From Acaryochloris marina MBIC11017 (GTDB taxonomy: Bacteria; Cyanobacteriota; Cyanobacteriia; Thermosynechococcales; Thermosynechococcaceae), in the NCBI RefSeq assembly GCF_000018105.1, contig NC_009925.1, forward strand, positions 3,210,001 to 3,242,000: a stretch of DNA of 32,000 nucleotides. The letters run 5' to 3'. The stretch's first letter is position 1. Every line of letters begins with the position of its first letter. The position numbers were made by a program, and so were the translations under genes. Below the pieces are notes generated by a model. The model made no database searches. It was not told the origin of the DNA and worked only from the letters and a program-made list of their open reading frames with translations. Shown here piece after piece: positions 193 through 14,596 of this stretch.

Positions 193-945
193 ATGATCTC
201 TGCTCTACCGATTGTGGATAAAACTGTTCAACCCTCTGATTTAATTCCTTTACTTGGACAGTATCAGCTTCTGCCTCAGTTGCTGAAAGAACTGATTATT
301 GACCAAGTGATTCAGGATGTGCAATTAAGCTCAGAAGAAGTTGTTCAGGCTGTAGAGCAGTTCTATCGCCAGTATCAAATTGGTGAGGAAGCTAGGCGTG
401 AGGCCTGGCTAACGCATTACCGGATGACGCCTCAGCAACTGGCGGCCCAAGCTCAACGGCAGATGAAGTTGTATAAATTCAAACTCCAGACTTGGAATAA
501 CCAGGTAGAGTCTGATTTTCTGCAGCAGAAAGGGCAGTTCGATCAATACGTTTATTCCTTGATCCGAGTCGCAAGTGCTGAAGTGGCTCAAGAGTTGTAC
601 TTTCGGCTACAAGCGGGTGAACAAGCATTTGCAGATTTGGCAACCAAATATTCTCAAGGGCCTGAAGCACAAACAGGTGGTTTGATTGGTCCTGTCACGG
701 CTGCTAATCTGCACCCCACATTAGTGCAAATTCTGACCAGCGCTCAACCGGGGCAAGTACGCCCACCCATTCGTTTAGGTGAATGGTTTGTGATTGTCAG
801 CTTGCAAAAATTGATCTCGGCTCAACTAGATGCCCCACTTCGACAACAATTGCTAGAGCAGCGCTTTAATGAGTGGCTGCAATTGCAACTGCAATCTGTT
901 GTTGTATCTGATGATTCTATTGCTGTTTCTGCGCAAACACCATGA
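193..945 (+). CDS. Parvulin (PpiC)-type peptidyl-prolyl cis-trans isomerase with a SurA-N-like helical N-terminal part. No signal peptide is visible.
   Basis: 250-aa ORF. The C-terminal half (FADLATKYSQGPEAQTGGLIGPV...GEWFVIVSLQKL) looks like a rotamase/parvulin domain. Its stop overlaps the next start (ATGA at 942-945). Confidence 0.8.
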   Translation: MISALPIVDKTVQPSDLIPLLGQYQLLPQLLKELIIDQVIQDVQLSSEEVVQAVEQFYRQYQIGEEARREAWLTHYRMTPQQLAAQAQRQMKLYKFKLQTWNNQVESDFLQQKGQFDQYVYSLIRVASAEVAQELYFRLQAGEQAFADLATKYSQGPEAQTGGLIGPVTAANLHPTLVQILTSAQPGQVRPPIRLGEWFVIVSLQKLISAQLDAPLRQQLLEQRFNEWLQLQLQSVVVSDDSIAVSAQTP

Positions 946-3899
946 CTTCAGCTATCCTTGCCCTAGAATCTTTTCTCAAAGATCTGCCCGGTTTTGACCA
1001 GCTGTCAGAAGCGGTTTTATCTTCGGTGGCGAAAGAGTTTCAACCGTTGCGCTATCCCATGGGCCGTCCGCTGGTCTCTAACCGGGCTATGCCCCAAGAC
1101 TTTACCCTCATCTATCAAGGGCAGGTGCGGCTATTAGGCTATGATCCCCGAACCGATGCTCCAGTGACCCTCAGTCTATTGGGACCAGGTGCTGCAGTGG
1201 GATGGATTAGTCTCGTGCGCCAAATTCCTTGTGAGACAGCCATTGCTTCGGTAGAAACAGTGGGCTTGAAGTTGCCCGCTGCGACCTTTTTAGAGCTGCT
1301 AGACCATGAACCGAGCATTGCCCAAGTCTATGAGCAGCAGCCCAGTGTCTTAGAAGCGTTTGAGGTCCTTGGTCAACAGTTATTGATACGGGCGGATGGT
1401 TCGACGGACCTCAAACGATTGGCAGAACGAGCGTTACCCGACAGTTTGATTCAAAACCGCCCCATACGAGATATCTCCATTGCCCAATTACAACCGAATT
1501 TGGAATGGTTTGTGAGTGGCGGGTCTATTCCTGACTTAGAAGTTGGGCAACCCTTGGAAACTTGTCTAGAGCAGCTCAATGGCACGGTCTCACGTTCAGA
1601 AACGCTCCGGTTGATTGGCTTATCGCCCATCAAGGCCCAGCAGCCAAAGATTGAGCCAGTGGCATCTGCTCCGCAAACCGATGCGTGGGAGGAGATTCCA
1701 GAAGCACCGACGTTGCTGCCTACGGTGGATGAAGCCCCGGTCAAGCATGGCAAATATCCCTTTAAATCAGGTCGGGGTCCTGTTGATGCTCCGCTGGCCT
1801 GTTTTCAAATGCTGGCGCTGCATCTCAACTTGCCATTTCGCAAAGATGTGATTCGACGGATTCTCAAAAACCAAACGGAGCGGAATGGTCCGGGAATTTC
1901 CCTACCGGTCTATGGTGCGATCGCAGAATCGATGGGCTTGCGTGCTCAACTCGTGGAAACTCCTGCCTCAGCTTTTCCTCGCCTTCCCGTTCCTGCTTTG
2001 ATCAACTGGCAGGATCGCATTGCGCTGGTGTATGAAACTGGCTCAAAAGAAATTGTGTTTGCGGTGCCAGAGCAAACCATGCTCCGCAAGCATCCAGATG
2101 ATTTTCTAGAAGCTTTTGATGACAAGGTGCAGGTGCTGCTGTTAGAGCGCACCCATGATACGCCTCAAAGTCGTTTTAATCTGAGTTGGTTTTGGCCGTC
2201 GATTAAGAAGCACCGTAAGGTTTTGATTGAGGTGTTGATTGCCTCGTTCTTTGTGCAATTGTTTGGCTTAGCGAATCCGCTGATTACGCAAGTCATTATC
2301 GATAAAGTCCTATCCCAAGGGGCTCTTGGAACCCTGAACGTGCTGGGTTTGTTACTGGTTGGTGTGGCTATTTTTGAAGCCTTGCTGACGAGTTTTCGAA
2401 CCTATCTGTTTGTGGATACCACCAATCGGATTGATATGTCTTTGGGGGCAGAGGTCATCGATCACTTGGTGCGTTTACCCCTACGCTATTTTGATAAGCG
2501 GCCTGTGGGAGAGCTAGCCACCCGAGTCAATGAATTGGAGAATATCCGTAAATTCTTGACGGGGACTGCCTTGACGGTGGTATTGGATGCGGTGTTCTCT
2601 GTGGTGTACATCGTTGTCATGGTGTTTTACAGCTGGCTGCTGACGATTATTGCCCTAGGCACAGTGCCGCTGTTTGCCTTGCTAACGTTTATCTTTGCAC
2701 CGATTATTCGCCGCTTGGCTCGGACCAAGGCTGAAGAAAATGCCAAAACCCAGTCTTACCTGGTGGAAGTTGTTTCGGGTATTCAAACGGTTAAGGCCCA
2801 GAATATTGAGCTGAAATCTCGCTGGCAGTGGCAAGATCGCTATGCTCGCTATGTCAGCTCCGGATTTAAGGCGGTGGTGGCGTCTACCACGGCGGGTTCC
2901 ATGAGCGGCTTTTTGAATAAATTATCCAGCTTGCTCCTGCTGTGGGTTGGAGCCTATCTATTTATTCAAGGGCAACTGACCGTGGGCGAATTGATTGCTT
3001 TTCGTATCATTGCGGGTTATACCACTGGTCCTTTGCTCCGCTTAGTGCAGCTATGGCAGAACTTCCAAGAAACGGCGCTTTCTCTAGAGCGCTTGAGTGA
3101 CATTCTCGATTACCCCCAAGAGGTGACTGAAGCGGACCGAGATTTAATTCCCATGCCGCTGATGGAGGGGGCGGTTAAATTTGATGAGTTATCTTTCCGA
3201 TTTAAGGACCATGGACCGATGCAGTTGCAGCAGGTGTCTTTGGAAGTCCCTGCTAAGACCTTTGTGGGTATTGTCGGTCAGAGTGGTTCAGGTAAGAGTA
3301 CCTTAATGAAGCTCTTGATGCGGCTTTATAACGCGAATGGAGGACGGATTTTAGTCGACCAGTATGACATTAGTAAGGTCGAGTTATATTCTCTCCGGCG
3401 TCAAATTGGCATGGTGCTACAAGACAGTTTGCTGTTTGATGGCACGGTCCAAGAGAATATTGCTTTATCCTCTCCCGATGCAACGGCGGAAGAAATTGTG
3501 GAAGCCGCCAAAGTGGCCTATGCCCATGATTTCATTATGGAGCTGCCCCAAGGCTATAACTCCCGAGTCGGTGAGCGGGGGTCATCTTTGTCTGGTGGCC
3601 AACGGCAACGGATTGCGATCGCACGTATGGTATTGCAAAATCCCCAGCTCATTATTCTGGATGAAGCCACGAGTGCACTAGATTACAACGCTGAGCGCCA
3701 AGTTTGCCTTAACTTAGCAGAAGCCTTTGGCGATCGCACCGTCTTTTTCGTCACTCACCGTCTCAAAACGTTGGAATCTGCGGATATGATTCTGATGATG
3801 GATCAGGGCAATCTAGTAGAACAAGGTACCCATGCTGAATTGATGCAGCAAAAAGGTCGATATTACTGGCTATACCAGCAACAGGAGATTCAATCATGA
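942..3899 (+). CDS. Type I secretion ABC exporter (HlyB-like). Domain order is cNMP-binding-like, C39-like (apparently non-catalytic), 6-TM ABC membrane domain, then ATPase.
   Basis: 985-aa ORF. Walker A is GQSGSGKST, the ABC signature is LSGGQRQRIAIAR and Walker B is LIILDEATSALD. A CNB-fold segment lies around aa 30-125. A C39-like segment (aa ~270-380) aligns by eye to ComA/HlyB N-domains. ATGA overlaps occur at both ends. Confidence 0.92.
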   Translation: MTSAILALESFLKDLPGFDQLSEAVLSSVAKEFQPLRYPMGRPLVSNRAMPQDFTLIYQGQVRLLGYDPRTDAPVTLSLLGPGAAVGWISLVRQIPCETAIASVETVGLKLPAATFLELLDHEPSIAQVYEQQPSVLEAFEVLGQQLLIRADGSTDLKRLAERALPDSLIQNRPIRDISIAQLQPNLEWFVSGGSIPDLEVGQPLETCLEQLNGTVSRSETLRLIGLSPIKAQQPKIEPVASAPQTDAWEEIPEAPTLLPTVDEAPVKHGKYPFKSGRGPVDAPLACFQMLALHLNLPFRKDVIRRILKNQTERNGPGISLPVYGAIAESMGLRAQLVETPASAFPRLPVPALINWQDRIALVYETGSKEIVFAVPEQTMLRKHPDDFLEAFDDKVQVLLLERTHDTPQSRFNLSWFWPSIKKHRKVLIEVLIASFFVQLFGLANPLITQVIIDKVLSQGALGTLNVLGLLLVGVAIFEALLTSFRTYLFVDTTNRIDMSLGAEVIDHLVRLPLRYFDKRPVGELATRVNELENIRKFLTGTALTVVLDAVFSVVYIVVMVFYSWLLTIIALGTVPLFALLTFIFAPIIRRLARTKAEENAKTQSYLVEVVSGIQTVKAQNIELKSRWQWQDRYARYVSSGFKAVVASTTAGSMSGFLNKLSSLLLLWVGAYLFIQGQLTVGELIAFRIIAGYTTGPLLRLVQLWQNFQETALSLERLSDILDYPQEVTEADRDLIPMPLMEGAVKFDELSFRFKDHGPMQLQQVSLEVPAKTFVGIVGQSGSGKSTLMKLLMRLYNANGGRILVDQYDISKVELYSLRRQIGMVLQDSLLFDGTVQENIALSSPDATAEEIVEAAKVAYAHDFIMELPQGYNSRVGERGSSLSGGQRQRIAIARMVLQNPQLIILDEATSALDYNAERQVCLNLAEAFGDRTVFFVTHRLKTLESADMILMMDQGNLVEQGTHAELMQQKGRYYWLYQQQEIQS

Positions 3900-5491
3900 C
3901 CAGTACTCAAGATTTCGCTGGCGACCCCACCAAACTGAATGGGACGAATGGAAATAACGGCAATGGATCTGAGCCAACGGTCCTGTCCCTGACTAAATCA
4001 GAGCCCAAAAAAGAAAAACCCTTTGATCGGCCAGTTATTCTGCAGCAATCTCCGTTTTGGTCTAGAGCCATCATTTATGGAATTGTAGGGGCGGCTGCAG
4101 CAGCATTGGCATGGGCCTGCTTGTTTGAAATTGAAGAAGCTATTCCTGCCACGGGACAGCTCGAACCCAAGGGGGCCGTTAAGGCTGTACAATCCCCTGT
4201 GACTGGTGTGGTTAAAGAGATTAAGGTCGAAGAAGGAGACCTGGTGAAGAAAGGGGACGTTTTAATTGTTCTCAATCGTAAAGCAACGCGATCAGAGATC
4301 AATTCCCTAAAACGCCAGCGTCGTAACCTAGTGCAAGTCAACGAGTATTATCGCCAACAGCTGAAAGGACAAACCGATACCCCCTTGCCGGATTTAATTG
4401 ATCCCGAGTTGATTAATTCCACCCGCGATCGCCAATCTTTAGTGGCGGAAAATAAATTATTTAGAGCCCAGCTGAATGGTGCTAATAATGCTCAAGCCTT
4501 TTCCGCAGAAGAGCGGCAGCGTTTAAATTCAGGTCTGCTGCAAGGAAAAACAAGCGTGGCGGCTGCCCAAGCCCGAGTCATGCAAGGGGATAAACAGCTT
4601 CGCCAAATTGAGGTCCAGCTAGAACAGACCAAAATTCAGCTGGCGAGTGCCCAACAGACTTTAGCCCTCAACAAAGAAATTGTCGCAGATATTGAAGATG
4701 CCCATAAGAAAGGGGCTATTGCTCGGGTTCAATTCAAGCGCCAAGAAGATGAAGTGCAGTCTGGTGAAGCCGAGGTCTCTCGCTTACAACAGGAACAGAT
4801 TCGCCTCTTGCGGCAAATGGAGCAGATTGGACAAGAAAAACTACAGTCTCAAGCCCAAGCGCTTAATACGGTAGCGACGAATCAGCGAGATTTACTAGAC
4901 CGAATCGCCGCTAATCAACAGCGTATTACTGAAATTGACAGTCAGCTGACCAAGGCCATTGTCGATAATCAGAGAACCATCGCTGATCTTGAAAATCGGC
5001 TACAGCAAGCAGAATTAACCCTGGATTACCAAGAGCTGAAAGCACCAGTCGCTGGGGTTGTGTTTGATTTGCAGCCCAGTTCACCGGGCTTTGTGGCAAA
5101 TGCGAGTGAACCCATTTTAAAAATTGTCCCTGAGGATAATTTGAAAGCCAAAGTTTACATTACCAATAAAGATATTGGCTTTATCCAGACTGGTATGCCT
5201 GTAGATGTCAGAGTAGATTCCTATAACTTTAGTGAATTTGGTGACATTAAAGGCACCATTGAATCCATTGGCTCAGATGCCTTGCCTCCTACAGAAGTGC
5301 GACAGTTTTATAGTTTTCCCGCCGTTGTTAAATTAGATACTCAAACTTTGAAGACCAGGGGCCGCCGTGAATTAGACTTGCAATCTGGAATGTCGGTCAG
5401 TGTCAATATCAAAGTCCGCGATCGACCGATTATTAGCTTGATTACTGATCGCTTTTCCAGAGAAGAGGATGGCATTAAGCATTTGCGCTAA
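3896..5491 (+). CDS. HlyD-family membrane fusion protein (periplasmic adaptor) of a T1SS.
   Basis: 531-aa ORF with an N-terminal TM helix (AIIYGIVGAAAAALAWACLF), a lipoyl-like motif (GVVKEIKVEEGDLVKKGDVLI), a long Q/E-rich coiled coil and a C-terminal beta-barrel part (LKAPVAGVVFDL...). It is translationally coupled to the ABC gene. Confidence 0.9.
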   Translation: MTSTQDFAGDPTKLNGTNGNNGNGSEPTVLSLTKSEPKKEKPFDRPVILQQSPFWSRAIIYGIVGAAAAALAWACLFEIEEAIPATGQLEPKGAVKAVQSPVTGVVKEIKVEEGDLVKKGDVLIVLNRKATRSEINSLKRQRRNLVQVNEYYRQQLKGQTDTPLPDLIDPELINSTRDRQSLVAENKLFRAQLNGANNAQAFSAEERQRLNSGLLQGKTSVAAAQARVMQGDKQLRQIEVQLEQTKIQLASAQQTLALNKEIVADIEDAHKKGAIARVQFKRQEDEVQSGEAEVSRLQQEQIRLLRQMEQIGQEKLQSQAQALNTVATNQRDLLDRIAANQQRITEIDSQLTKAIVDNQRTIADLENRLQQAELTLDYQELKAPVAGVVFDLQPSSPGFVANASEPILKIVPEDNLKAKVYITNKDIGFIQTGMPVDVRVDSYNFSEFGDIKGTIESIGSDALPPTEVRQFYSFPAVVKLDTQTLKTRGRRELDLQSGMSVSVNIKVRDRPIISLITDRFSREEDGIKHLR

Positions 5492-5540
5492 GTCATAAAA
5501 GTCTCGGCTGAGTAGCCCCTGGTGACGAGATCAGTGAGTC

Positions 5541-5571
5541 AAATAAAAACCCTAACGAAATACCGTTAGGG
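5541..5571 (-). terminator. Rho-independent terminator for the minus-strand small ORF.
   Basis: 8-bp stem CCCTAACG / CGTTAGGG (5550-5557 and 5564-5571) with a 6-nt loop. On the minus strand the stem is followed by TTTTTATTT. The plus strand has no T tract after it. Confidence 0.6.
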
Positions 5572-5620
5572 CCAAGAGATCGATATTGGATTCAGAATAG
5601 TTCAAGCGTTATGGCGGAGC

Positions 5621-5848
5621 TTAAGCTGCTATCCTCGCCAATTTATTGCTGGATAACTCTTCTAGGGTTTCGAGCTCTAGAGACTCGTTCATGCTATCTA
5701 CATCTAGATCGAGCAGTATAAAACTGTTGATTTCTGCGTCAGATAAAAAGAGAGACTGTTCAGAATGGAAAACAGTGGTGTTTAACGTGTTAAGAAGAGT
5801 CATAGTCTGAATATTTTGGAGAAGTGCCATCTGAGAGGTCATGGTCAT
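5621..5848 (-). CDS. Hypothetical small acidic protein (75 aa), convergent with the T1SS operon.
   Basis: The ORF has 11 Asp/Glu against 2 Lys/Arg and no Gly, Pro, Cys, Trp or Tyr. A dedicated minus-strand terminator lies downstream and a palindrome lies upstream. I recognise no homology. Confidence 0.4.
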   Translation of the reverse strand: MTMTSQMALLQNIQTMTLLNTLNTTVFHSEQSLFLSDAEINSFILLDLDVDSMNESLELETLEELSSNKLARIAA

Positions 5849-5898
5849 TGGGGGAGTGTGGGTTGGTTGCTTATAGATATAGACTAGCCATTACAGTA

Positions 5899-5915
5899 AG
5901 CTTGAGAGTCAAGCT
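5899..5915. promoter_or_regulatory. Perfect 7-3-7 palindrome AGCTTGA-GAG-TCAAGCT upstream of the small acidic ORF. Candidate operator.
   Basis: Read directly from the sequence. It lies 51-67 nt upstream of the ATG at 5848 on the minus strand. Confidence 0.25.
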
Positions 5916-5996
5916 AAATTGGTATAAGAATAAGTTATACTTTGAAACTCAATCCTATACTGATCGTTAAAACTATTGATCTACAAAGCTTTTATG

Positions 5997-6954
5997 TATA
6001 GCAGTCGCCATTCTATTCAGGACACTAGATGTAGAACATGTTCCATTGCTTCTCTGAGAGATCCAAAATGTTCTAATTGGTGACGGATGCGACTTTTAAT
6101 CCAAGACCAAGACCGCTCAATCTTGTTCAAGTCAGGGGAATAAGGCGGTAAATACCAAACCTCACATCCTGCTTTTTCCACTAATTCCTGTATTTGTCCT
6201 CCCTTGTGAAAAGTGGCATTATCTATCACCAGCTTCTGCCCAGGCTTGAGCACGGGTATCAAGCAACGCTCTAGCCAAAGTTCAAACACAGTCCGATTGC
6301 AAGCTCCTTCGATCGTGAACGGTGCCATCAACTGCTTTGCTCTCAACGCCGCAATCATATTGACTCGGCCGCTTCTACGCCCAGTCTTCAAAGCATAAAC
6401 CCGCTCACCTTTGGGGCCATAAGCATAGTCATACTCGTCTCGATGATCCATGCCCGACTCATCCGCATAGACGATATCGTCTGGGTCCACGGTACTCAGA
6501 CGTTTGATGAACGCTGCCCGTTTGTGCTTATCTCGTTCTCGGTACCCATATGTTTTTTTTTCGAGTAAATCCGATTTTCTGGAGGGCTCTTGAGATGGTT
6601 CGATCACTAATCTCTCCATCCCATAGTTGAGCCATCTGAGCTTGGGTTTTATGACGATGCTTGTGGGCAAACGCTCGAAACTTGTCCCAGTCAGTGATTT
6701 TATGGCTATGGCCAGGATGATGGACTGGCTTGGGATGCAAATCACCCGTTTCCGCCTTGAGGTGTTGCCATTGGTTAATGGTGTTACGACTGATATCGAA
6801 CAGCTCACTAGCCTCAGAAGGGCGCATCCCATCTAGCTCAATCGCATCTATCACTTTGCAACGTAGGTCGTAACTATAAATTTTGGGCATCACACAGGAG
6901 AAGGAATAAAATACTTCTCTAGTTTAAGTCCTTCTCAATATGGCGACTGCTATA
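5997..6954 (-). mobile_element. IS630/Tc1-mariner family insertion sequence (ISY100-like, about 0.95 kb) with terminal inverted repeats and flanking TA.
   Basis: TATAGCAGTCGCCAT at 5997-6011 is the exact reverse complement of 6940-6954. The imperfect inverted repeat extends to about 27 nt, ending in AGGAC on both sides. A TA dinucleotide lies at each outer edge, consistent with TA target duplication. The element encloses a DDE transposase. Confidence 0.85.
6017..6893 (-). CDS. IS630-family transposase (HTH N-domain plus DD34E catalytic domain), split into two frames at an A9 tract.
   Basis: orfA (6528-6893) ends ...QKIGFTRKKNIW. orfB (6017-6832) continues ...KKTYGYRERD with DESG, DNATFH and, 34 residues on, the E of NKIE. 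The frames join at the A9 run (T9 on plus, 6553-6561). Removing one A gives one continuous ORF of about 291 aa. Confidence 0.85.
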
Positions 6955-6992
6955 TGTGTAATGTCTATTTTGACGATATACATCGTATAAAT

Positions 6993-7032
6993 AAAAAAAC
7001 TGCTCTGGCATAACCAGAGCAGTTTTCGTTTT
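6993..7032 (-). terminator. Bidirectional Rho-independent terminator downstream of the giant RTX gene.
   Basis: 9-bp perfect stem CTGCTCTGG / CCAGAGCAG (7000-7008 and 7014-7022) with a 5-nt loop. It is flanked by A7 (6993-6999) and TTTTCGTTTT (7023-7032), so a U tract follows on either strand. Confidence 0.75.
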
Positions 7033-7065
7033 AAGCCTTATGGATTAAATGATGTAGATTCAACG

Positions 7066-10000
7066 CTAGATATAGCTGAAAGAACTATCTGTCAGGCTAA
7101 ATCCAGAGTCACCCATAACATTGGCAATTAACTCATCAGCGCCGCCAGCACTGCCATCACCATTAGAATCTAGATAGATTCCAGTTCCGCTCATGCCAGG
7201 GGCTGAAGCTCCTAAGACGTAATCAGATGCAGAACCACTGAGTTGAATCGTATCCTCGCTGCCATTGAAGTCAGTAATGACGGCAAAGTCAGTGAGACCT
7301 GCTGATGTTTCATCGCCATCGTTGTAGTAGGCGACGTCACCGCCAAGGACAAAATAATCTGCCCCTTCATCCCCAGTCATATAGTCGATAGAGCCACTGC
7401 CTTTAAGGGTGTCGCTGTTGGCACCGACTAATACATCGTCACCACTACCGCCTAGTAGAGTGTCATTGCCTTCTTGACCAATTAGGGTATCGTTGTTAGC
7501 GCCCCCGTCAAGGACATCATTACCTGCGCCAGCATAGAGGCCGTCGTTTCCGGCATCGCCAAAGAGCTGATCATCACCACTGCCACCATATAAGGAGTCT
7601 AGACCTGCACCACCCTGTAGATTATTAGATCCGTTGACTCCATAGAGAGCATCGTTACCGTCTCCACCCAGCAGTTGGTTATCCCCAGTGCTGCCAAACA
7701 ACTCGTCGTTGCCAGCGCCACCATCTAAAAGATCATTATCGCTATCGGCATACAGGGAATCGTCCCCTTCTCCCCCTAAGAGAGTGTCAACACCAGACCC
7801 ACCGTAGAGCTGGTCATTGCCACTGCCTCCTTCGAGGAAGTCATTTCCGCTACCGCCTTTGAGGATATCTGCTCCTGCACCAGCATTGAGGATATCGTCA
7901 TTGCTGCCGCCGTCCAGGGTGTCTTTACCATCGCCACTGGAGAGGGTATCGTTCCCAGATCCACCCTTGAGGGTGTTATTGCCACCCGTAGTGGTCAAAA
8001 CGTCATCCCCGGCACCGCCATCTAAGCGGTCGCTGCCGCTGCCACTAGAAAGGGTGTCATTGCCTCCTTGGCCGTAGAGCTTCACTTTTGCCCCGTTGGT
8101 GGAGGTAATTTCGTCATTGCCGCTATTGGCATAGAGCGTTTCAATGCCGGCTGCATCGATATCCATATTTAGGTCAGAGGTGCTTTGATAGTAAGCCGTA
8201 TCTGTACCAGTGCCGCCTTCAACCACCGTATCGTCAGCGTCGAAGTAGAGTTTATCGTTACCAGCGCCCCCGATTAATTGATCTGCACCTGCATCTCCTT
8301 TCAGGGTATCGTTGCCAGACCCACCATCTAAGAGGTCATCGCCACTACCGCCAAGCAGACTATCGTTGCCGTTACCAGAGCTTAGAGTATCGTTACCAGA
8401 CCCACCATCTAAGGTATCTTTGCCTCCGGCAGTCGTCAGGCTATCGTTACCGTCGCCACCGAATAGAGCATTGTTGCCACCGCTAGAGGATAAGACATCG
8501 TCGCCGCTGCCACCATCTAAGCGATCGCTACCGCTGCCACTGGTAAGGGTGTCATCGCCAGCTAGGCCATACATCTTAATGTTGGTGCCATTGCTGGAGG
8601 TGAACTGGTCGTTCCCAGCGTTACCGTGAATTTCTTCGATGCTGACATCATCAATATTGAGGGTTAGACCGTCGCTACTTTGGAGTTTGGCAACGTCTGT
8701 ACCGTCGCCACCATCGAAGGTGTCATCACCATCGAAGTTCAGGGTGTCGTTACCTGCACCGCCCATGAGGGTATCGGCCCCGGCATTGCCCGAGAGCACA
8801 TCATTGCCTTCTTGGCCTTCTAATAGGTCATCACCCGCGCCGCCGGAGAGGATATCATTGCCTGCTCCTGCGAGAATGGTGTCATTGCCATCACCGCCAT
8901 CGAGGTTCTCATGGCCGGTGCCGCCCGTGATACTGTCATCGCCAGCTTCACCATGAATTTCGACATTCTCGGTACCGGAATTGGTAAAGACATCATCGCC
9001 GCCAGAACCGTAGGCTAGCTCAATTTGGCTGGTGCCCAGGTCTAAGGTGACCGGTTGGTTGCCTTGGGCGCGAGCGATGTCATAACCGTCGCCGCCATCG
9101 ACTACGGTATCGTCCGCGTCGAATAGCAATGTGTCAGAGCCTTCGCCTCCATACAGTGCGTCTGCACCATCGCCACCGACCAACATGTCGTTCTCGGTAC
9201 CGCCTTCGAGGGTGTCATCCCCAGCACCCCCATCCATGTAATCATGGCCCGCTTCCCCAGAAATTAGGTCGTTGCCTTCACCTGCGATCGCAGTATCTTC
9301 ACCGGCTCCACCGGCTAGGGTATCGTCGCCCGTGCCGCCTTCAAGATAGTCATTGGCTGAGCCACCGGATAACTGGTCATTACCGCCGTTACCGAATAAC
9401 GCCACTGTGGTCGAAGCGGGAGTTCCAGCACCATTGGTATGGGTGAAAACATCATCACCACTGTTGCCGTGGGCTTCATCAAAGCTGTTGGCCCCTGCAT
9501 CAAAGACGACGCCTTCTGCAGACTCAACAATGGCAACGTCATAGCCTTCACCACCGAGGATTTGAGTGTCGGCAGCGTCAATAAAGACAACATCATTTCC
9601 GTCTCCACCTAGGAGGGTATCAGCCCCTTCACCTCCACTTAAGAAGTCATTGCCGCTGCCGCCATCAACGATGTCATTCCCGGCGTTCCCGGACAGCCAC
9701 TCGTCATTGCCGGTATTACCAGAAATAACGTCAGCTCCTGCACCACCTTCAATGACATCCTGGCCTTCGCCACCACTGAGTTGGTCGGCCCCTTCACCAC
9801 CACTTAAGTAGTCGTTTCCGGCATCACCAGAGAGGACGTCATCCCCGGCATCGCCCATGAGAACGTCTTTTTCTTCGCCACCGAAGAGGGTATCATTGCC
9901 AGCACCACCTTCTAAAATATCTGAGCCAGCTTCACCCTTCAGTAAGTCAGCATCATCACCGCCGCCTAAGGTGTCGTTACCAGCCCCACCGTATAGGGTG

Positions 10001-12594
10001 TCTAGTCCAGCATCGCCTTGGAGAACATCGTTTCCTGCATCACCAGTTAGTAAATCCTGGTCAGCGCCACCCAGAACGGTATCATCGTCTTCACCACCGG
10101 AAACAATGTCGTTCCCCCGGCCACCAGAAACGATGTCGTTGCCTGTACCGCCGGAAATAACATCGTTGCCCGTACCACCGTCGACCCAGTAGTCATCACC
10201 TGTTCCGGCGTTGAGAATGTCGTTGCCAGCCCCGCCAGTCAGAACGTCGTTGCCTTCATCCCCTGCCAAGGTGTCGTTACCCGTACCACCGCTGATGATG
10301 TCACTTTCTAAGCCACCGCTTAGCTCGTCATGGCCTGTGCCCCCATCTAGGGTGTCCTTGCCTGCGCCGCCGAAGAGCGTGTCGTCGCCGAGACCTCCTT
10401 CTAAGATGTCGTCGCCTTGGTCGCCAGAGAGATAGTCATTACCGCTGTTCCCCAAGATGGTGTCGTTGCCTTCACCCCCCATGAGGACATCATTCACAGA
10501 TGAAGCCGTGCTCGCGTGCACCGAGACGCTATCTAGATATCCACCCAAGCTATCGTCGGTGCCCACGGCTCTAAACTCAAGGGCAGTCGTATCACCATTG
10601 CCACCTTGGAGCTTATAGGTATAGGTTTGCCATTGTTCGCTTTGGCTTTCACCGTGAATGGTATCGATGAGTTCGCCATCCCAGTAAACTTCAATTGGTG
10701 TACTGTTGAGATCTACACCGGGTCTGGGAGTGTAAGCAAAAGACAGCTCGTAGGTTTGTCCTGCTACCGTGTCTAATTGCTGCATCATGCCACTGTTGTT
10801 GTGGCTATCGAGTTCTACTCGGGCTTGGCCGTCATCAGCGACCCCTATCTGCTGAACTTCGATGCCGGACCCTTGGGTACTTGTCCAACCGGATATGGAT
10901 TGGAAAACATCCCAACTCTTATTGCCCAGAGGATTGTCTTCGAAACTGCCATTGACGACGAGATTGATTTGACCCAGGCTATCTTCTTGACCGCCATCGA
11001 TAAAGTCGTTCCCAGTGCCCCCGTAGATGGTGTCGTCTCCGGAACCCCCATCCATAATGTCGTTGCCAGCATTGCCTGACATTAAATCGTTGCCGGAGTT
11101 ACCCAGAACGATGTCTTGGCCTTCACCACCGCTAACGGTATCTTCACCAGCACCGCCAGCAACCACATCATTGCCGAGGCCGCCTTCTACGAGGTCATTA
11201 CCATCGCCACCGTCGACCCAGTAGTCGTCGCCTTCACCTCCATCCAGGACATCATTGCCCGCGTCGCCCATCATGACATCGTTACCGGTGTTACCCAGCA
11301 GGGTGTCTGTCCCTCTACCGCCAGACAGCACATCTTCTCCAGCGCCGCCATCGATTAAATCAGCGCCTTCACCACCCGAGAGCCAGCCATCATTTCCAGC
11401 GCCACCGTCGATGGTGTCATTGCCCTGGCCGCCTTCAATGGCATCCATGCCTTCATCACCGGAGAGCAGATCATTCCCGACCCCACCATCGATAAAGTCA
11501 TGACCCGCACCACCGCTGATGGTGTCTTGCCCAGCATCGCCGTAGAGAACGTCCTGGTCGCCTTCGCCGGAAATGAGATCATTGCCTTCGCCGCCATGGA
11601 TATTGTCGTCTCCATGTCCCCCGTAGAGGGTATCTGTACCGGTGCCCCCATCCATATGATCGATATGTTCACCACCAAAGAGAGCATCGTCGCCCGCTCC
11701 CCCCATCATGGTGTCATCATCTGCGCCGCCGTAGAGGATATCGTTGCCTTCGCCACCATCCATGATGTCGTGGCCTTGCTCACCGTAGAGGGTATCGCTG
11801 CCTTCGCCGCCAGACATCCAATAGTCGTCACCGGCACCCCCGATTAGCTCATCGTTACCAGCTTCTCCCATGAGAATGTCATTGCCAGACTGGCCCAGGA
11901 TTTTGTCATCCCCTAGACCGCCTTTAAGGGTGTCAGCGCCTTCACCCCCATCCACTAGGTCATCCCCAGTACCGCCATCCACATAATCCGCGCCAGAGCC
12001 GGCTAATAGGCTATCTTGGCCTTCATTTCCGAGTAGATTGTCGTTGCCAACACCGCCGGTGACAAAGTCATTGCCTTCGCCGCCGCTGAGAATATCATCG
12101 CCTGCGTCCCCATGTAGGGTGTCGTCACCTGCTTCACCGGCTAGCCAGTAATCATCGCCTTGGCCGCCAATAATCATATCTGCGCCTTGGTCACCCATGA
12201 TGGCGTCTTTACCTAAGCCACCAATGAGGACATCATTACCAATGCCGCCTAAGAGAAGGTCATCATTCTGGGTACCGCTGCTAATAGCGTTGGGATCGGC
12301 GAAACCTGCACCGCTTTCATCGATGGGACCGGTATAGGTGTAGTTACCGCTTGCATCTTGTTGCCAGTTTTGGGTACCCCCTTCATCACCATGCATCCAG
12401 TCATTGCCTTGGCCGCCAGAGAGCGTATCGTTGCCTGTGCCACCTTTGACGACATCATCGCCTTCATTACCCGATAGCCAAACATCATCGCCTTCGCCGC
12501 CGATAATGGTATCGTCGCCTTCCTTGCCGACAACGACATCATCTGCCTCGGAGCCGAATAGAGCTTCGCTGCTGTCAGTACCAAATACTTGCAT
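7066..12594 (-). CDS. Giant RTX-type calcium-binding protein (1842 aa) and likely T1SS substrate. It has dozens of GGxGxDxxx nonapeptide repeats, an embedded DUF642/CBM-like beta-sandwich domain and a C-terminal secretion-type domain.
   Basis: The hemolysin-type nonapeptide repeat is pervasive. A non-repeat segment around aa 543-695 (NGSFEDNPLG...GWTSTQGSGIEVQ...YELSFAYTPRPG...) lies at nt ~10510-10970. The C-terminal ~110 aa (GADYFVLGG..YYNDGDETSAGLTDFAVITDFNGSEDTIQLSGSASDYVLG...) resembles T1SS C-terminal target domains. There is no N-terminal signal peptide. Confidence 0.92.
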   Translation of the reverse strand: MQVFGTDSSEALFGSEADDVVVGKEGDDTIIGGEGDDVWLSGNEGDDVVKGGTGNDTLSGGQGNDWMHGDEGGTQNWQQDASGNYTYTGPIDESGAGFADPNAISSGTQNDDLLLGGIGNDVLIGGLGKDAIMGDQGADMIIGGQGDDYWLAGEAGDDTLHGDAGDDILSGGEGNDFVTGGVGNDNLLGNEGQDSLLAGSGADYVDGGTGDDLVDGGEGADTLKGGLGDDKILGQSGNDILMGEAGNDELIGGAGDDYWMSGGEGSDTLYGEQGHDIMDGGEGNDILYGGADDDTMMGGAGDDALFGGEHIDHMDGGTGTDTLYGGHGDDNIHGGEGNDLISGEGDQDVLYGDAGQDTISGGAGHDFIDGGVGNDLLSGDEGMDAIEGGQGNDTIDGGAGNDGWLSGGEGADLIDGGAGEDVLSGGRGTDTLLGNTGNDVMMGDAGNDVLDGGEGDDYWVDGGDGNDLVEGGLGNDVVAGGAGEDTVSGGEGQDIVLGNSGNDLMSGNAGNDIMDGGSGDDTIYGGTGNDFIDGGQEDSLGQINLVVNGSFEDNPLGNKSWDVFQSISGWTSTQGSGIEVQQIGVADDGQARVELDSHNNSGMMQQLDTVAGQTYELSFAYTPRPGVDLNSTPIEVYWDGELIDTIHGESQSEQWQTYTYKLQGGNGDTTALEFRAVGTDDSLGGYLDSVSVHASTASSVNDVLMGGEGNDTILGNSGNDYLSGDQGDDILEGGLGDDTLFGGAGKDTLDGGTGHDELSGGLESDIISGGTGNDTLAGDEGNDVLTGGAGNDILNAGTGDDYWVDGGTGNDVISGGTGNDIVSGGRGNDIVSGGEDDDTVLGGADQDLLTGDAGNDVLQGDAGLDTLYGGAGNDTLGGGDDADLLKGEAGSDILEGGAGNDTLFGGEEKDVLMGDAGDDVLSGDAGNDYLSGGEGADQLSGGEGQDVIEGGAGADVISGNTGNDEWLSGNAGNDIVDGGSGNDFLSGGEGADTLLGGDGNDVVFIDAADTQILGGEGYDVAIVESAEGVVFDAGANSFDEAHGNSGDDVFTHTNGAGTPASTTVALFGNGGNDQLSGGSANDYLEGGTGDDTLAGGAGEDTAIAGEGNDLISGEAGHDYMDGGAGDDTLEGGTENDMLVGGDGADALYGGEGSDTLLFDADDTVVDGGDGYDIARAQGNQPVTLDLGTSQIELAYGSGGDDVFTNSGTENVEIHGEAGDDSITGGTGHENLDGGDGNDTILAGAGNDILSGGAGDDLLEGQEGNDVLSGNAGADTLMGGAGNDTLNFDGDDTFDGGDGTDVAKLQSSDGLTLNIDDVSIEEIHGNAGNDQFTSSNGTNIKMYGLAGDDTLTSGSGSDRLDGGSGDDVLSSSGGNNALFGGDGNDSLTTAGGKDTLDGGSGNDTLSSGNGNDSLLGGSGDDLLDGGSGNDTLKGDAGADQLIGGAGNDKLYFDADDTVVEGGTGTDTAYYQSTSDLNMDIDAAGIETLYANSGNDEITSTNGAKVKLYGQGGNDTLSSGSGSDRLDGGAGDDVLTTTGGNNTLKGGSGNDTLSSGDGKDTLDGGSNDDILNAGAGADILKGGSGNDFLEGGSGNDQLYGGSGVDTLLGGEGDDSLYADSDNDLLDGGAGNDELFGSTGDNQLLGGDGNDALYGVNGSNNLQGGAGLDSLYGGSGDDQLFGDAGNDGLYAGAGNDVLDGGANNDTLIGQEGNDTLLGGSGDDVLVGANSDTLKGSGSIDYMTGDEGADYFVLGGDVAYYNDGDETSAGLTDFAVITDFNGSEDTIQLSGSASDYVLGASAPGMSGTGIYLDSNGDGSAGGADELIANVMGDSGFSLTDSSFSYI

Positions 12595-12623
12595 GGTTTC
12601 CCCCTGGTTTGTAATTCTTCTTA

Positions 12624-12690
12624 ACGCTAATTGTTCAAGTTCACTAGAGTGTCAATAGGTAAAGCTATAAAAAAAACTTATGTATTGACA
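12624..12690 (-). promoter_or_regulatory. Candidate promoter/operator region of the RTX gene. It has an inverted repeat TGTCAATA (12650-12657) / TATTGACA (12683-12690). A minus-strand TTGACA (12655..12650) is followed by a 20-nt spacer and TAGCGT (12629..12624).
   Basis: Read directly. The over-long spacer is the geometry typical of MerR-activated promoters, and a MerR-family gene lies immediately upstream. The -10 match is weak. Confidence 0.2.
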
Positions 12691-12765
12691 TGGATAGGCA
12701 GGACGGTTTGTGGACTTCACCCATTGATGGAGTCCAGTAGATTAGAAATGAGGGTTTAAATGGAG

Positions 12766-13722
12766 TTAAGGAACAGGCTGTGGATAGCTAACGGTTGAGG
12801 TATCCACAACGATGGGTTCATCCACAATCACATCGTCAAGATTGGCATCAATTAAATTGCTGCCAAATAAGTTGACCCCTCGTAAATCTGCTCCCTGTAA
12901 ATTGGCTCCCATAAGGATGGCTTCGCTGAGGTTGGCACCTCGCAGGTCGGCTTCACATAAGCAAGCGCCACCCAAATTACTGCCAATTAAACTGGCGTCT
13001 GTTAAGGTGGTTTCACTTAAATCTGTACCAATCAGAACCGCATGGGATAAATCGGCCTGTTTGAGGTAAGCACCAATCATATCGGCTCCACTCAGATAGG
13101 CTTCGCGAAACGTGCATTGTTCTAGGGCAGTTTCGTTTAAACTCGCCAACATCAGTTCAGCCCGATTGAAATTGCTATGGCTGAGGAGAGTGCCGCTCAA
13201 TTTAGCTCCAATCAGCTTCATACCTGCGAAATGGCGTTCACCTGCTGCATATTTTGCCAATATGCTTCGGCTAATATCTTCATCTCCTTCCAGATCTGCA
13301 TGACTATGCTCTTCAATTGTTTGTAGCAATTTGAGAAGAGATTGAGATTGGGGGCCGACCGTACTCAGCTGCTGTAATTGTTCAAAACGACGTCCTAGTT
13401 GTTGTCGAGAATGGTTGAGTTCTGCGAGCTGTTGGTCTAATTCTTCGACATGGTGGGCTACCATTTGCTGCATGCGCTGTTGTGCATCTTTGGAATGTTC
13501 ACCAAGGTCTAGCAGTTCTTTAATTTCGTGTAGGGAGAGGCCAAAATTTTGGGCACTGCGAATGATTTGTAATCGGTTTTGAGCGGCTGTGGTGTAGAGA
13601 CGATAGCCGGATCGATTCCGTTCGGGTTGTTTCAGGAGTCCAAGTTGCTCATAATAGCGAATTGCTTGAGGCGAGACACCAAATTTACTGGCTAATTGGC
13701 CAATGAGCAGTCCAGTCGTCAT
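12766..13722 (-). CDS. MerR-family HTH transcriptional regulator fused to a C-terminal pentapeptide-repeat domain.
   Basis: The N-terminus LLIGQLASKFGVSPQAIRYYEQLGLLKQPERNRSGYRLY...LQIIRSAQNFGLSLHEIKELL is a classic MerR HTH followed by a coiled coil. About 125 C-terminal residues carry A(D/N)LxX pentapeptide repeats (ADLSHAVLIGTDLSETTLTDASLIGSNLGG...ADLRGANLSEAILMGANLQGADLRGVNL). I chose the ATG at 13722. The track start at 13791 is a TTG. Confidence 0.85.
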   Translation of the reverse strand: MTTGLLIGQLASKFGVSPQAIRYYEQLGLLKQPERNRSGYRLYTTAAQNRLQIIRSAQNFGLSLHEIKELLDLGEHSKDAQQRMQQMVAHHVEELDQQLAELNHSRQQLGRRFEQLQQLSTVGPQSQSLLKLLQTIEEHSHADLEGDEDISRSILAKYAAGERHFAGMKLIGAKLSGTLLSHSNFNRAELMLASLNETALEQCTFREAYLSGADMIGAYLKQADLSHAVLIGTDLSETTLTDASLIGSNLGGACLCEADLRGANLSEAILMGANLQGADLRGVNLFGSNLIDANLDDVIVDEPIVVDTSTVSYPQPVP

Positions 13723-13783
13723 TTCATTATCAGGGATTAGAAATCCAAGTTTTTTATCGGTTATTCTTAGGATGCCCAAATAA

Positions 13784-13834
13784 AAAGGCAATTTAGCGGA
13801 GTAAAGACGACAAGCTCCAGCAAAAATTGCCTTT
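13784..13834 (-). terminator. Long hairpin with 11-bp perfect arms (AAAGGCAATTT / AAATTGCCTTT) and a 29-nt loop, between the 105-aa gene and the MerR-PRP gene. Possible terminator or operator.
   Basis: The arms lie at 13784-13794 and 13824-13834. On the minus strand the second arm is followed by TTATTTGGG. Confidence 0.3.
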
Positions 13835-13879
13835 GACTGATATAAGGTTTAAGAGGAATAGTTCGGATTTGACTGTTAG

Positions 13880-14197
13880 TTAAGCCACGGCAGCCACTAA
13901 ATGATTTGTGGTTTTTGGGCCAACTTTTTCTTTGAGAACATCTTGGATTTGGCGCAAATAATCTTCGGCAACTTCTTGAGGAAAATTGAGGTGAATGGTG
14001 AGATTAGGATTGCTGCTATAGATGTGTAATGAACCATAGGTGGGTAACCAGCCTGAGAAGCCAGCGACCTGTGTATAGGCGATAAATTGGAAAGCCCGAG
14101 TGCTGGGGTTAGAGTACTCAATCCCGCTTTCTGTAAGGGTAATAATGACATCGCTGTTTGCATCTTTGGGATGAAAACCTTTGAATTCCATTCTCAT
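13880..14197 (-). CDS. Hypothetical protein (105 aa), soluble, no recognised domain.
   Basis: Clean ORF with coding-like composition, flanked by AT-rich non-coding DNA. It is on the same strand as its neighbours. Confidence 0.5.
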   Translation of the reverse strand: MRMEFKGFHPKDANSDVIITLTESGIEYSNPSTRAFQFIAYTQVAGFSGWLPTYGSLHIYSSNPNLTIHLNFPQEVAEDYLRQIQDVLKEKVGPKTTNHLVAAVA

Positions 14198-14596
14198 GAC
14201 AGACTCCTAGACATGGGTCAATTTAATGTGCTCAATCTGGTGTTTGCGGAGTATTCTTTTATAGAATATTTTTGCTAAAAAAGAGTAAGTTTTCTATTTG
14301 TCGTGAGTACGAAAGCAGAAAAAGAATGACTCTTTAGTCAGATTGGATATTTCAATATTGCCCAAAAAGTAGTTCTATCTAACTTGATAATGTTGTGGTG
14401 TTTAAGTAAAAAATTTTAGACTGTATTTAATTTTTGTCGGAGATATATGAAGACTCAAACAATTTATTTTTTGTGTATACAAAATAGACAGAAAGATATA
14501 CATCCTAAACGGTGTTTTTGGATGCTCAGCAGATGGGACAGAGTCTTACTGGAGGTCCGTCTGCAGGCTGCTATTGTAGGTCTAGCACGAGCAAGT

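Follow-up and report, generated by a model that had tools for sequence, protein, structure and literature searches.

The exporter operon and its surroundings

The window analyzed is a 32,000-nucleotide stretch of Acaryochloris marina MBIC11017 (NC_009925.1, positions 3,210,001 to 3,242,000), and all coordinates given here refer to it. An open reading frame at 942 to 3899 on the plus strand encodes an ABC exporter of 985 amino acids (aa) that belongs to the HlyB/Sll1180 family and carries CNB-like, middle, and C39-like domains at its N terminus; its numbering and codons agreed with those of the original prediction. Immediately 5′ lies a parvulin (PpiC)-like gene (193 to 945, plus strand), recognized by the Pfam Rotamase model (45 bits) and showing weak TIGR04500 and NifM matches. 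Its stop codon and the exporter start codon share 4 nt (ATGA). The stop codon of the exporter gene likewise shares 4 nt with the start of a gene for an HlyD-type membrane fusion protein (3896 to 5491, plus strand; Pfam HlyD_3), the product of which scored 202 bits with TIGR01843, slightly below the cutoff of 208.65; the HlyD gene is thus translationally coupled to the exporter gene. Across related loci, the parvulin-like gene was found directly 5′ of the exporter in 73 of 81 and the HlyD gene was kept 3′ of it in 70 of 81. The conserved unit comprises the parvulin-like, ABC, and HlyD genes, in which the parvulin-like gene regularly accompanies that of the exporter.

Downstream, on the minus strand (7066 to 12594), is a gene for an RTX protein of 1,842 aa containing 49 HemolysinCabind stretches. 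Neighboring RTX genes had been put forward as fitting a transporter of RTX substrates. An RTX gene is indeed present, but an IS630-family element (6017 to 6893) lies between it and the exporter operon, and most related loci have none. An RTX neighbor was present in one related locus (L004) and absent from two others (L006 and L007); counting of motifs identified RTX genes in 5 of 46 large loci, and homology clustering in 14 of 81. A second candidate substrate gene, whose product has an RTX-type C terminus, was located just upstream of the window, such that proteins with C termini of this type are encoded on both sides of the operon. In Nostocales loci, PPC-domain proteins were found in place of RTX genes, and the conserved neighbors across loci indicated no single substrate class. 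The RTX neighbor is lineage specific, a possible but nonconserved substrate gene, and counts for little as support for the HlyB-type reading.

Domain architecture and secretion-system class

The domains of the exporter follow the order cNMP-binding-like, small middle, C39-like, ABC membrane, and ATPase. The transmembrane domain (TMD; aa 428 to 698; 2223 to 3035, plus strand) matched ABC_membrane with an E value of 1e−57. The nucleotide-binding domain (NBD; 3162 to 3899, plus strand), delimited by ABC_tran and by alignment to HlyB, has intact ATPase motifs, namely, Walker A (aa 779), the signature motif (aa 883), Walker B and its catalytic Glu (aa 905), and the H-loop (aa 938). The middle domain (aa ∼150 to 230; 1389 to 1631, plus strand) appeared from AlphaFold2 (AF2) secondary structure and pLDDT to be a small folded α/β unit. 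Two of its residues, W189 and R223, are conserved in 83% and 99% of the family, respectively; the PDB search returned no significant match for it.

Using NCBIfam, the exporter passed the HlyB-type type I secretion system (T1SS) model TIGR01846 (734.2 bits versus a cutoff of 725.55; aa 290 to 981), while the bacteriocin/PCAT models were far under their cutoffs (TIGR01193, 385.6 versus 523.85; TIGR03796, 416.5 versus 853.3). The closest solved relative was E. coli HlyB (E value, 6e−165; PCAT1, 1e−103), with an alignment that spans aa 285 to 981 and includes the C39-like domain (CLD). The exporter also combines the intact ATPase motifs with a type IV exporter TMD and an adjoining HlyD-family gene, as expected of HlyB-type exporters. 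These results agree with the earlier assignment as an HlyB-type transporter and not a bacteriocin processor. At least 589 loci of this exporter family were identified in species-representative genomes, and the exporter is a typical representative of a family of protein-secretion pumps that is widespread in cyanobacteria. We regard the gene as probably encoding the inner-membrane ABC component of an HlyB/Sll1180-family T1SS, and assign the best explanation as a whole a probability of roughly 0.7.

The C39-like and CNB-fold domains

The C39-like domain (aa 270 to 410; 1749 to 2171, plus strand) was delimited by Pfam, a family profile, and the HlyB alignment, and lacks the Gln, Cys, His, and Asp of active peptidases. 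Its match to Peptidase_C39 (PF03412; aa 282 to 395) was just above threshold (22.7 bits versus 22), and a profile of aa 262 to 420 built from 22 sequences matched the PCAT1 peptidase domain with an E value of 1e−8. This profile placed G277, A283 (GCT, 1788 to 1790), R359 (CGC, 2016 to 2018), and V375 (GTG, 2064 to 2066) at the Gln, Cys, His, and Asp positions of PCAT1, exactly where an alignment by eye had put them. In the phmmer alignment with E. coli HlyB, A283 fell on Tyr9 and, in the gapless form, A361 fell on His83. No His occurs in aa 340 to 380. The pattern is family wide: in 126 family sequences, Cys was found at the Cys site in 1, His at the His site in 8, and Asp at the Asp site in 11, while the LACFQML helix and W356 (63%) are conserved. 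Foldseek matched the predicted domain to PCAT1, the HlyB CLD (3ZUA), LahT, and ComA with E values of 3e−7 to 1e−5 (3ZUA, 3e−6); at the sequence level, the profile gave no match to 3ZUA. The HlyB CLD is defined by a retained His83 stacked on the conserved Trp77 (PMC8277102). The proposal that the domain carries the hallmark of HlyB-type CLDs was upheld in part, in that the C39 fold has its catalytic Cys replaced and the Trp is present (W356 is plausibly the equivalent of Trp77), but the signature His is missing. From its residues, the domain is predicted to be a pseudo-peptidase that has kept the papain-like fold and lost the catalytic residues, as had been suspected.

The domain holds a single Cys, C287, conserved in 83% of the family, and might be imagined as an active peptidase that uses such unconventional residues to export processed double-glycine (GG) leader peptides. 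Cyanobacteria encode many GG-leader peptides, and by sequence profile the domain is nearer the PCAT1 peptidase than the HlyB CLD. C287, however, occupies the noncatalytic "AC" position one turn into helix 1, which is Cys in PCAT1 too; the other three catalytic positions are also substituted, and no GG-leader open reading frame was seen within or beside the operon. Together with the low scores against the curated bacteriocin and PCAT models, these observations make active peptidase function highly improbable.

The CNB-fold domain (aa 1 to 145; 942 to 1376, plus strand) matched cNMP_binding (PF00027) over aa 37 to 122 (30.2 bits versus a cutoff of 27.5), and a profile of aa 1 to 150 from 20 family sequences matched the CNB domains of PKG and PKA with E values down to 4e−16. 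The AF2 model had a pLDDT above 90 and was superposed by Foldseek on PKG CNB-B with a TM score of 0.86 and a root mean square deviation of 1.7 Å; the structural glycines G41, G60, G83, and G87 are conserved. Although fold and domain score are those of PF00027, the phosphate-binding cassette (aa 86 to 103, VGWISLVRQIPCETAIAS; 1197 to 1250, plus strand) is a variant without the Glu for the ribose 2′-OH and the Arg for the cyclic phosphate. Profile alignment against solved structures paired G87-W88 with the canonical G-E, placing W88 (TGG, 1203 to 1205) at the Glu site, and put C97 (TGT, 1230 to 1232), or P96 if a one-residue gap is allowed, at the Arg site, which bears out the original prediction. 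The only Arg or Glu residues in aa 80 to 110 are R93, E98, and E105, and no alignment restored the canonical Glu…Arg pair. Loss of the pair is likewise a family trait, with Glu at its site in 5 of 156 sequences and Arg at its site in 0 of 156. Because both residues are replaced, canonical binding of cAMP or cGMP by the cassette is predicted to be impossible.

The substituted cassette nevertheless has a consensus of its own. Across ∼150 sequence clusters, the most conserved stretch of the CNB domain reads G-x-x-x-L-x-R-x-x-P-C-E-T-A-I-A-S, in which R93 (89%), C97 (near invariant), E98 (94%), A102, and S103 stand out. R93, which precedes the canonical Arg site by four residues, could be a relocated phosphate-binding Arg, and the domain could bind a ligand that carries phosphate, conceivably including a cyclic nucleotide bound in an atypical pose. 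That it still senses cAMP or cGMP through such noncanonical contacts, with E98 as a relocated Glu, and that the automatic annotation is right, draws on the conservation of R93 and E98 and on an FHA-GAF class III cyclase gene that the window contains ∼9 kb farther downstream. The order of charges is reversed, though (R…E versus E…R), and a Glu beside the phosphate site would be expected to repel a cyclic phosphate. The cyclase gene directly follows the HlyD gene in one relative, but just 2 of the 80 related loci have it as a neighbor. The cNMP domain of HetC from Nostoc sp. PCC 7120, which is essential in vivo, bound ppGpp (Kd, 59 μM), GTP, and GDP but neither cAMP nor 2-OG (PMC10986499). We consider cyclic nucleotide sensing improbable.

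Both N-terminal domains have lost all of their textbook functional residues, and could on that ground be taken for functionless, decaying relics. Selection analysis contradicted this reading. Compared with the nearest orthologue, dN/dS was 0.055 for the CNB domain and 0.042 for the C39-like domain, and the variant cassette carried 0 nonsynonymous changes at a dS of 0.84. PCETAIASV and PLACFQMLA, one from each domain, ranked in the top three for conservation among 9-mers of the N-terminal 420 aa, family-specific motifs were kept across clusters that are only 25 to 45% identical, and AF2 predicted both domains to fold with high confidence. Decay is therefore extremely improbable. Strong purifying selection acts on both domains, which are hence repurposed, not dead. 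The CNB domain had been called degenerate, a term that does not fit, as the replacement cassette is its most conserved segment.

Conservation of the cassette alone cannot separate a ligand site from an interface. The CNB-fold domain might thus act without a small ligand, as a structural or protein-protein module that docks, for instance, the NBDs, the substrate, or the product of the parvulin-like gene, with the cassette as its interaction surface. The absence of the canonical ligand-contacting residues fits such a role, and the near-universal operon partner offers a candidate binding protein. On the other hand, the domain at the homologous position in HetC bound nucleotides in vitro, and conservation is focused exactly on the segment that forms the ligand pocket of every known CNB domain. 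We judge an interface role unlikely, with perhaps a one-in-four standing among the readings, and favor a sensor of a ligand other than cAMP or cGMP.

Proposed function and comparison with known systems

Residues required for cyclic nucleotide binding or peptidase activity are absent from this gene and from ∼150 related clusters, and the family should therefore be read as one of HlyB/Sll1180-type protein exporters. As the original prediction had stated, members are annotated automatically by domain match, and their public names include "cyclic nucleotide-binding domain-containing protein" and "CRP-like cAMP-binding protein." Many of these database names derive from the cNMP-binding or peptidase domain and can mislead readers into assuming that cAMP regulates the exporters or that they process bacteriocins.

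In the mechanism we propose, the exporter would be cotranscribed with the upstream parvulin-like protein and the downstream HlyD adaptor. By analogy with the HlyB CLD, which binds unfolded substrate on the side away from the peptidase groove, the C39-like domain most likely docks unfolded substrates bearing C-terminal secretion signals, without cleaving them. By analogy with HetC, whose reported binding of guanine nucleotides and ppGpp provides the one experimental lead, the CNB-fold domain is most likely a regulatory sensor of another ligand, tuning secretion through the conserved cassette R93-x-x-P-C97-E98-T-A-I-A-S. A more tentative extension, which we would not expect to hold in full, is that the R-x-x-P-C-E domain is a dedicated sensor of a noncyclic ligand, which might be ppGpp or another alarmone, a guanine nucleotide, or else a redox or metal signal read via Cys97. 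It would gate type I secretion across the Cyanobacteriota, with the cotranslated parvulin-like protein as a cytoplasmic chaperone keeping substrates secretion competent. If true, this would be a ligand-regulated, chaperone-assisted T1SS, as opposed to the constitutive HlyB paradigm. Conservation of both the substituted cassette and the parvulin-like partner throughout the phylum suggests that type I secretion of S-layer, adhesin, and biofilm proteins in cyanobacteria is regulated and chaperoned in a manner unlike that of the E. coli model.

Among known systems, the canonical CNB domains (PKG CNB-B, PKA RIα, and CAP) and non-cNMP sensors such as NtcA share the β-barrel fold of the exporter domain, but the canonical cassette Glu and Arg are Trp and Cys here, with an acidic residue right after. 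The CNB fold matches from Foldseek also included, at rank 50, a cAMP-independent trypanosome PKA regulatory subunit with guanosine bound, and substitutions in the cassette can therefore retarget the pocket. PCAT1, ComA, and LahT have the same papain-like fold as the C39-like domain (Foldseek TM score to target, 0.67 to 0.76); they differ in the four catalytic residues, all replaced here, and the A. marina protein did not reach the cutoffs of the bacteriocin exporter models. HetC resembles the exporter in its order of cNMP, C39, TMD, and NBD domains (PMC10986499), a comparison made by domain order and description, so that ppGpp binding could be carried over by analogy only. HetC differs in that C347 and H420 of its catalytic site are retained, it is active as a protease, and no gene for a membrane fusion protein lies next to its own.

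E. coli HlyB (7SGR and 8DCK; CLD, 3ZUA) aligns over the CLD, TMD, and NBD. It shares with the exporter a noncatalytic C39-like domain with the Cys replaced (Tyr9 in HlyB, A283 here) and pairing with an HlyD adaptor. HlyB keeps its stacked His83, whereas the exporter has no His there; HlyB also has neither a CNB-fold nor a middle domain, and here a parvulin-like partner gene is present and the substrate gene lies outside the operon. The family further includes a Synechocystis sp. PCC 6803 "HlyB family" protein of 1,011 aa, P0178 (BAA18265.1), which from its length and name we take to be the product of sll1180. It has the full architecture and is ∼40% identical to the exporter over the N-terminal 420 aa. 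Its cassette, IGDNNAIRNVPCETAIAS, and its CLD substitutions (DAGVACFQM, WQDSLALVY, and AVPE) correspond to those of the exporter. In that organism, a different species from the exporter host, Sll1180, an HlyB analogue, and Sll1181 export the RTX S-layer protein Sll1951, according to Agarwal et al. 2018 as cited in PMC11594277.

An HlyB-family transporter with two noncanonical N-terminal domains

The ABC protein encoded at 942..3899 (+ strand; 985 aa) is an HlyB-family type I secretion system (T1SS) ABC protein. It passed the curated NCBIfam HlyB model TIGR01846 (734.2 bits; cutoff, 725.55) and scored far under the cutoffs of the bacteriocin and peptidase-containing ABC transporter (PCAT) models, in keeping with the original prediction of an HlyB-type exporter over a bacteriocin-processing one. 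Pfam identified cNMP_binding (aa 37 to 122; 30.2 bits; cutoff, 27.5), Peptidase_C39 (aa 282 to 395; 22.7 bits; cutoff, 22), ABC_membrane (aa 428 to 698), and ABC_tran (aa 762 to 911) domains, and the ATPase motifs were intact. In the literature searched, no paper linked type I secretion and HlyB with a cyclic nucleotide-binding domain.

The cyclic-nucleotide-binding-type (CNB) domain had been proposed to lack its two ligand-contacting residues, with W88 at the ribose-binding Glu and C97 at the phosphate-binding Arg; all codons and residue numbers given for both N-terminal domains were correct when rechecked on the open reading frame. Using a single-sequence search against solved structures, aa 10 to 103 aligned with PKG I CNB-B, placing G87-W88 on the cassette G-E, and a 20-sequence family profile strengthened the match to CNB structures (E value, 4e−16). 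An AlphaFold2 model of aa 1 to 420 (mean pLDDT, 86.9) gave a PKG CNB-B-like fold for the CNB part (TM, 0.86; rmsd, 1.7 Å). The assignment of W88 stood, and that of C97 held in gapless form; with one gap, depending on the target aligned, P96 took the Arg site instead. The only charged candidates within aa 80 to 110 were R93, E98, and E105, so that no alignment yields a Glu...Arg pair, and profile alignment likewise did not restore one. The CNB-fold domain therefore lacks the canonical cNMP contacts.

In the cassette (aa 86 to 103), the family carries a motif of its own, G-x-x-x-L-x-R-x-x-P-C-E-T-A-I-A-S, in place of the canonical one. Conservation was high at G87 (99%), R93 (89%), C97 (79%), E98 (94%), and A102 (96%), and PCETAIASV was the most conserved 9-mer of the domain. 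R93 may have taken over, from a shifted position, the role of the phosphate-binding Arg, so that binding of a phosphorylated ligand stays plausible. The domain would respond to a ligand other than a cNMP, or to a protein partner, and modulate transport.

The second N-terminal domain has a C39 fold and is noncatalytic. A 22-sequence profile aligned to the PCAT1 peptidase domain (E value, 1e−8) set G277, A283, R359, and V375 on the Gln, Cys, His, and Asp of the active site, exactly as had been placed by eye, and the Cys/His pair was not restored. The sole Cys of the domain, C287, aligned to the noncatalytic "AC" position, which is Cys in PCAT1 too, and inspection of aa 340 to 380 found no His. 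In the phmmer alignment with HlyB, Tyr9 corresponded to A283 and, in gapless form, His83 to A361. The sequence profile of this C39-like domain (CLD) did not match the HlyB CLD entry 3ZUA; HlyB was instead linked to this protein by aligning the full-length sequences and by comparing folds, in which a second model (aa 146 to 420) matched PCAT1, the HlyB CLD (3ZUA), LahT, and ComA (E values, 3e−7 to 1e−5). The CLD would dock unfolded substrates bearing C-terminal signals. Its most conserved 9-mer was PLACFQMLA. The two domains are separated by a small alpha/beta module of ∼80 residues, predicted with confidence (aa ∼150 to 230; window 1389..1631) and conserved at W189 (83%) and R223 (99%), for which neither Pfam nor a PDB fold search gave a significant match.

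Family-wide residue loss and purifying selection

An exhaustive phmmer search identified 731 clusters (50% identity) with E values below 1e−3. The best 150 of the 731 cluster representatives were surveyed together with 31 closer homologues, giving 156 sequences usable in the CNB region and 126 in the C39 region. The canonical Glu occupied the ribose site (W88) in 5 of the 156, and none had Arg at the phosphate site (C97), where 121 carried Cys; the loss proposed for this protein is thus family-wide. At the C39 positions, Cys was found as the nucleophile (A283) in 1/126 sequences, His at the R359 site in 8/126, and Asp at the V375 site in 11/126.

Both domains are under purifying selection. Against the closest orthologue (L004), the one comparison in which dN/dS was dependable (dS was saturated for the relatives L006 and L007), the ratio came to 0.055 in the CNB domain and 0.042 in the CLD, and the cassette showed 0 nonsynonymous changes at a dS of 0.84. 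These values and the family-wide conservation of motifs show pseudoenzyme or pseudoreceptor modules with a selected function, not decaying relics.

Operon, neighboring genes, and candidate substrates

The ABC gene overlaps by 4 nt at its start codon with a parvulin-type rotamase (PpiC-like) gene (193..945, + strand), to which it is translationally coupled, and by 4 nt at its stop codon with an HlyD-type adaptor gene (3896..5491, + strand). In species-representative genomes, the family is encoded at 589 or more loci; every locus that could be identified belonged to Cyanobacteriota, nonphotosynthetic lineages among them, and the nearest relatives of the window were Acaryochloris genomes. Eighty loci were fetched for neighborhood counts. 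The sole conserved neighbors were the parvulin-like gene (immediately upstream; 73/81) and the HlyD gene (70/81), and the three genes form a conserved operon. Promoter and terminator scans gave background levels. The parvulin-like protein had no evident signal peptide; it may serve the T1SS as a dedicated chaperone, acting in the cytoplasm. It also matched NifM and TIGR04500 ("peptide maturation system") weakly. Modest leads open to experiment are this conserved partner and the cassette peculiar to the family.

The original prediction had also drawn support from neighboring RTX genes, a support that proved weak. Motif counts placed RTX genes in 5 of the 46 large loci, and homology clustering placed them in 14/81; they were rejected as conserved operon members. 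In the window, an IS630-family transposase (6017..6893, − strand) intervenes between the HlyD and RTX genes; its two overlapping ORFs (HTH and DDE_3) suggest a programmed or accidental frameshift. Beyond it lie a giant RTX protein of 1842 aa (7066..12594, − strand), a possible substrate in which a DUF642-like domain (aa 544 to 691) breaks up 49 HemolysinCabind stretches, a MerR-type DNA-binding domain fused to a pentapeptide-repeat domain (12766..13791, − strand), and an FHA-GAF class III adenylate/guanylate cyclase (14597..16267, − strand). One Acaryochloris relative lacked the entire 5.5- to 14.6-kb segment: in the MAG L007 (6016-7783, compared with window 5491..14597), the cyclase gene directly follows the HlyD gene, so the IS630 element, the 1842-aa RTX gene, and the MerR-pentapeptide gene represent a variable insertion. 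A cAMP link through the cyclase was rejected, as it adjoins the exporter in only 2/80 loci.

A further protein with RTX repeats and a glycoside hydrolase family 16 domain (20747..23029, − strand) has a T1SS-type C terminus and probably acts as a glucanase after secretion. It shares a C-terminal "...ITDFNGSEDTIQL..." motif with the giant RTX protein. Another candidate for export by the T1SS is encoded approximately 0.5 to 3.5 kb upstream of where the window starts (L084:5587-8529, + strand) and is also found in L006. This protein of 980 aa, with beta-helix-like repeats and without a Pfam match, carries at its C terminus two RTX nonapeptides and a tail of hydrophobic and acidic residues ("...LTADNFIL") typical of T1SS signals. 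In Nostocales loci (L019, L028, L034, L042, and others), one to three tandem genes for pre-peptidase C-terminal (PPC) domain proteins lie just upstream of the PpiC-like gene. These proteins (∼250 aa, ending "...FDHFTTPFA", without RTX repeats) may be what this exporter family secretes in that lineage.

Comparison with known systems

Three features define a CLD: the catalytic Cys is lost, a His is kept that stacks on a conserved Trp, and the exported proteins are large RTX proteins (PMC8277102; PMC6363468). As in the HlyB CLD, the catalytic Cys is replaced in the ABC protein and the Trp is plausibly kept as W356, but the stacked His is absent. The "HlyB family" protein of Synechocystis PCC 6803, presumably Sll1180, belongs to the same family and carries identical substitutions. 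For Sll1180 together with Sll1181, export of Sll1951, an RTX protein of the S-layer, has been reported (as cited in PMC11594277).

One metagenomic member, P0083, was the sole surveyed sequence with Cys at the catalytic position, plus nearby His and Asp; its CNB domain has the same PCE cassette as the rest of the family. This member may stand for a HetC-like branch whose peptidase is active. Neither a P0083-seeded search nor a profile search built on the CNB alignment recovered a named HetC; both yielded only fragments. The cNMP-like domain of HetC from Nostoc binds ppGpp, GTP, and GDP, but not cAMP or 2-OG, and is required in vivo (PMC10986499). HetC shares the domain order of the ABC protein; however, its peptidase is active, whereas the C39-fold domain of the ABC protein is noncatalytic.
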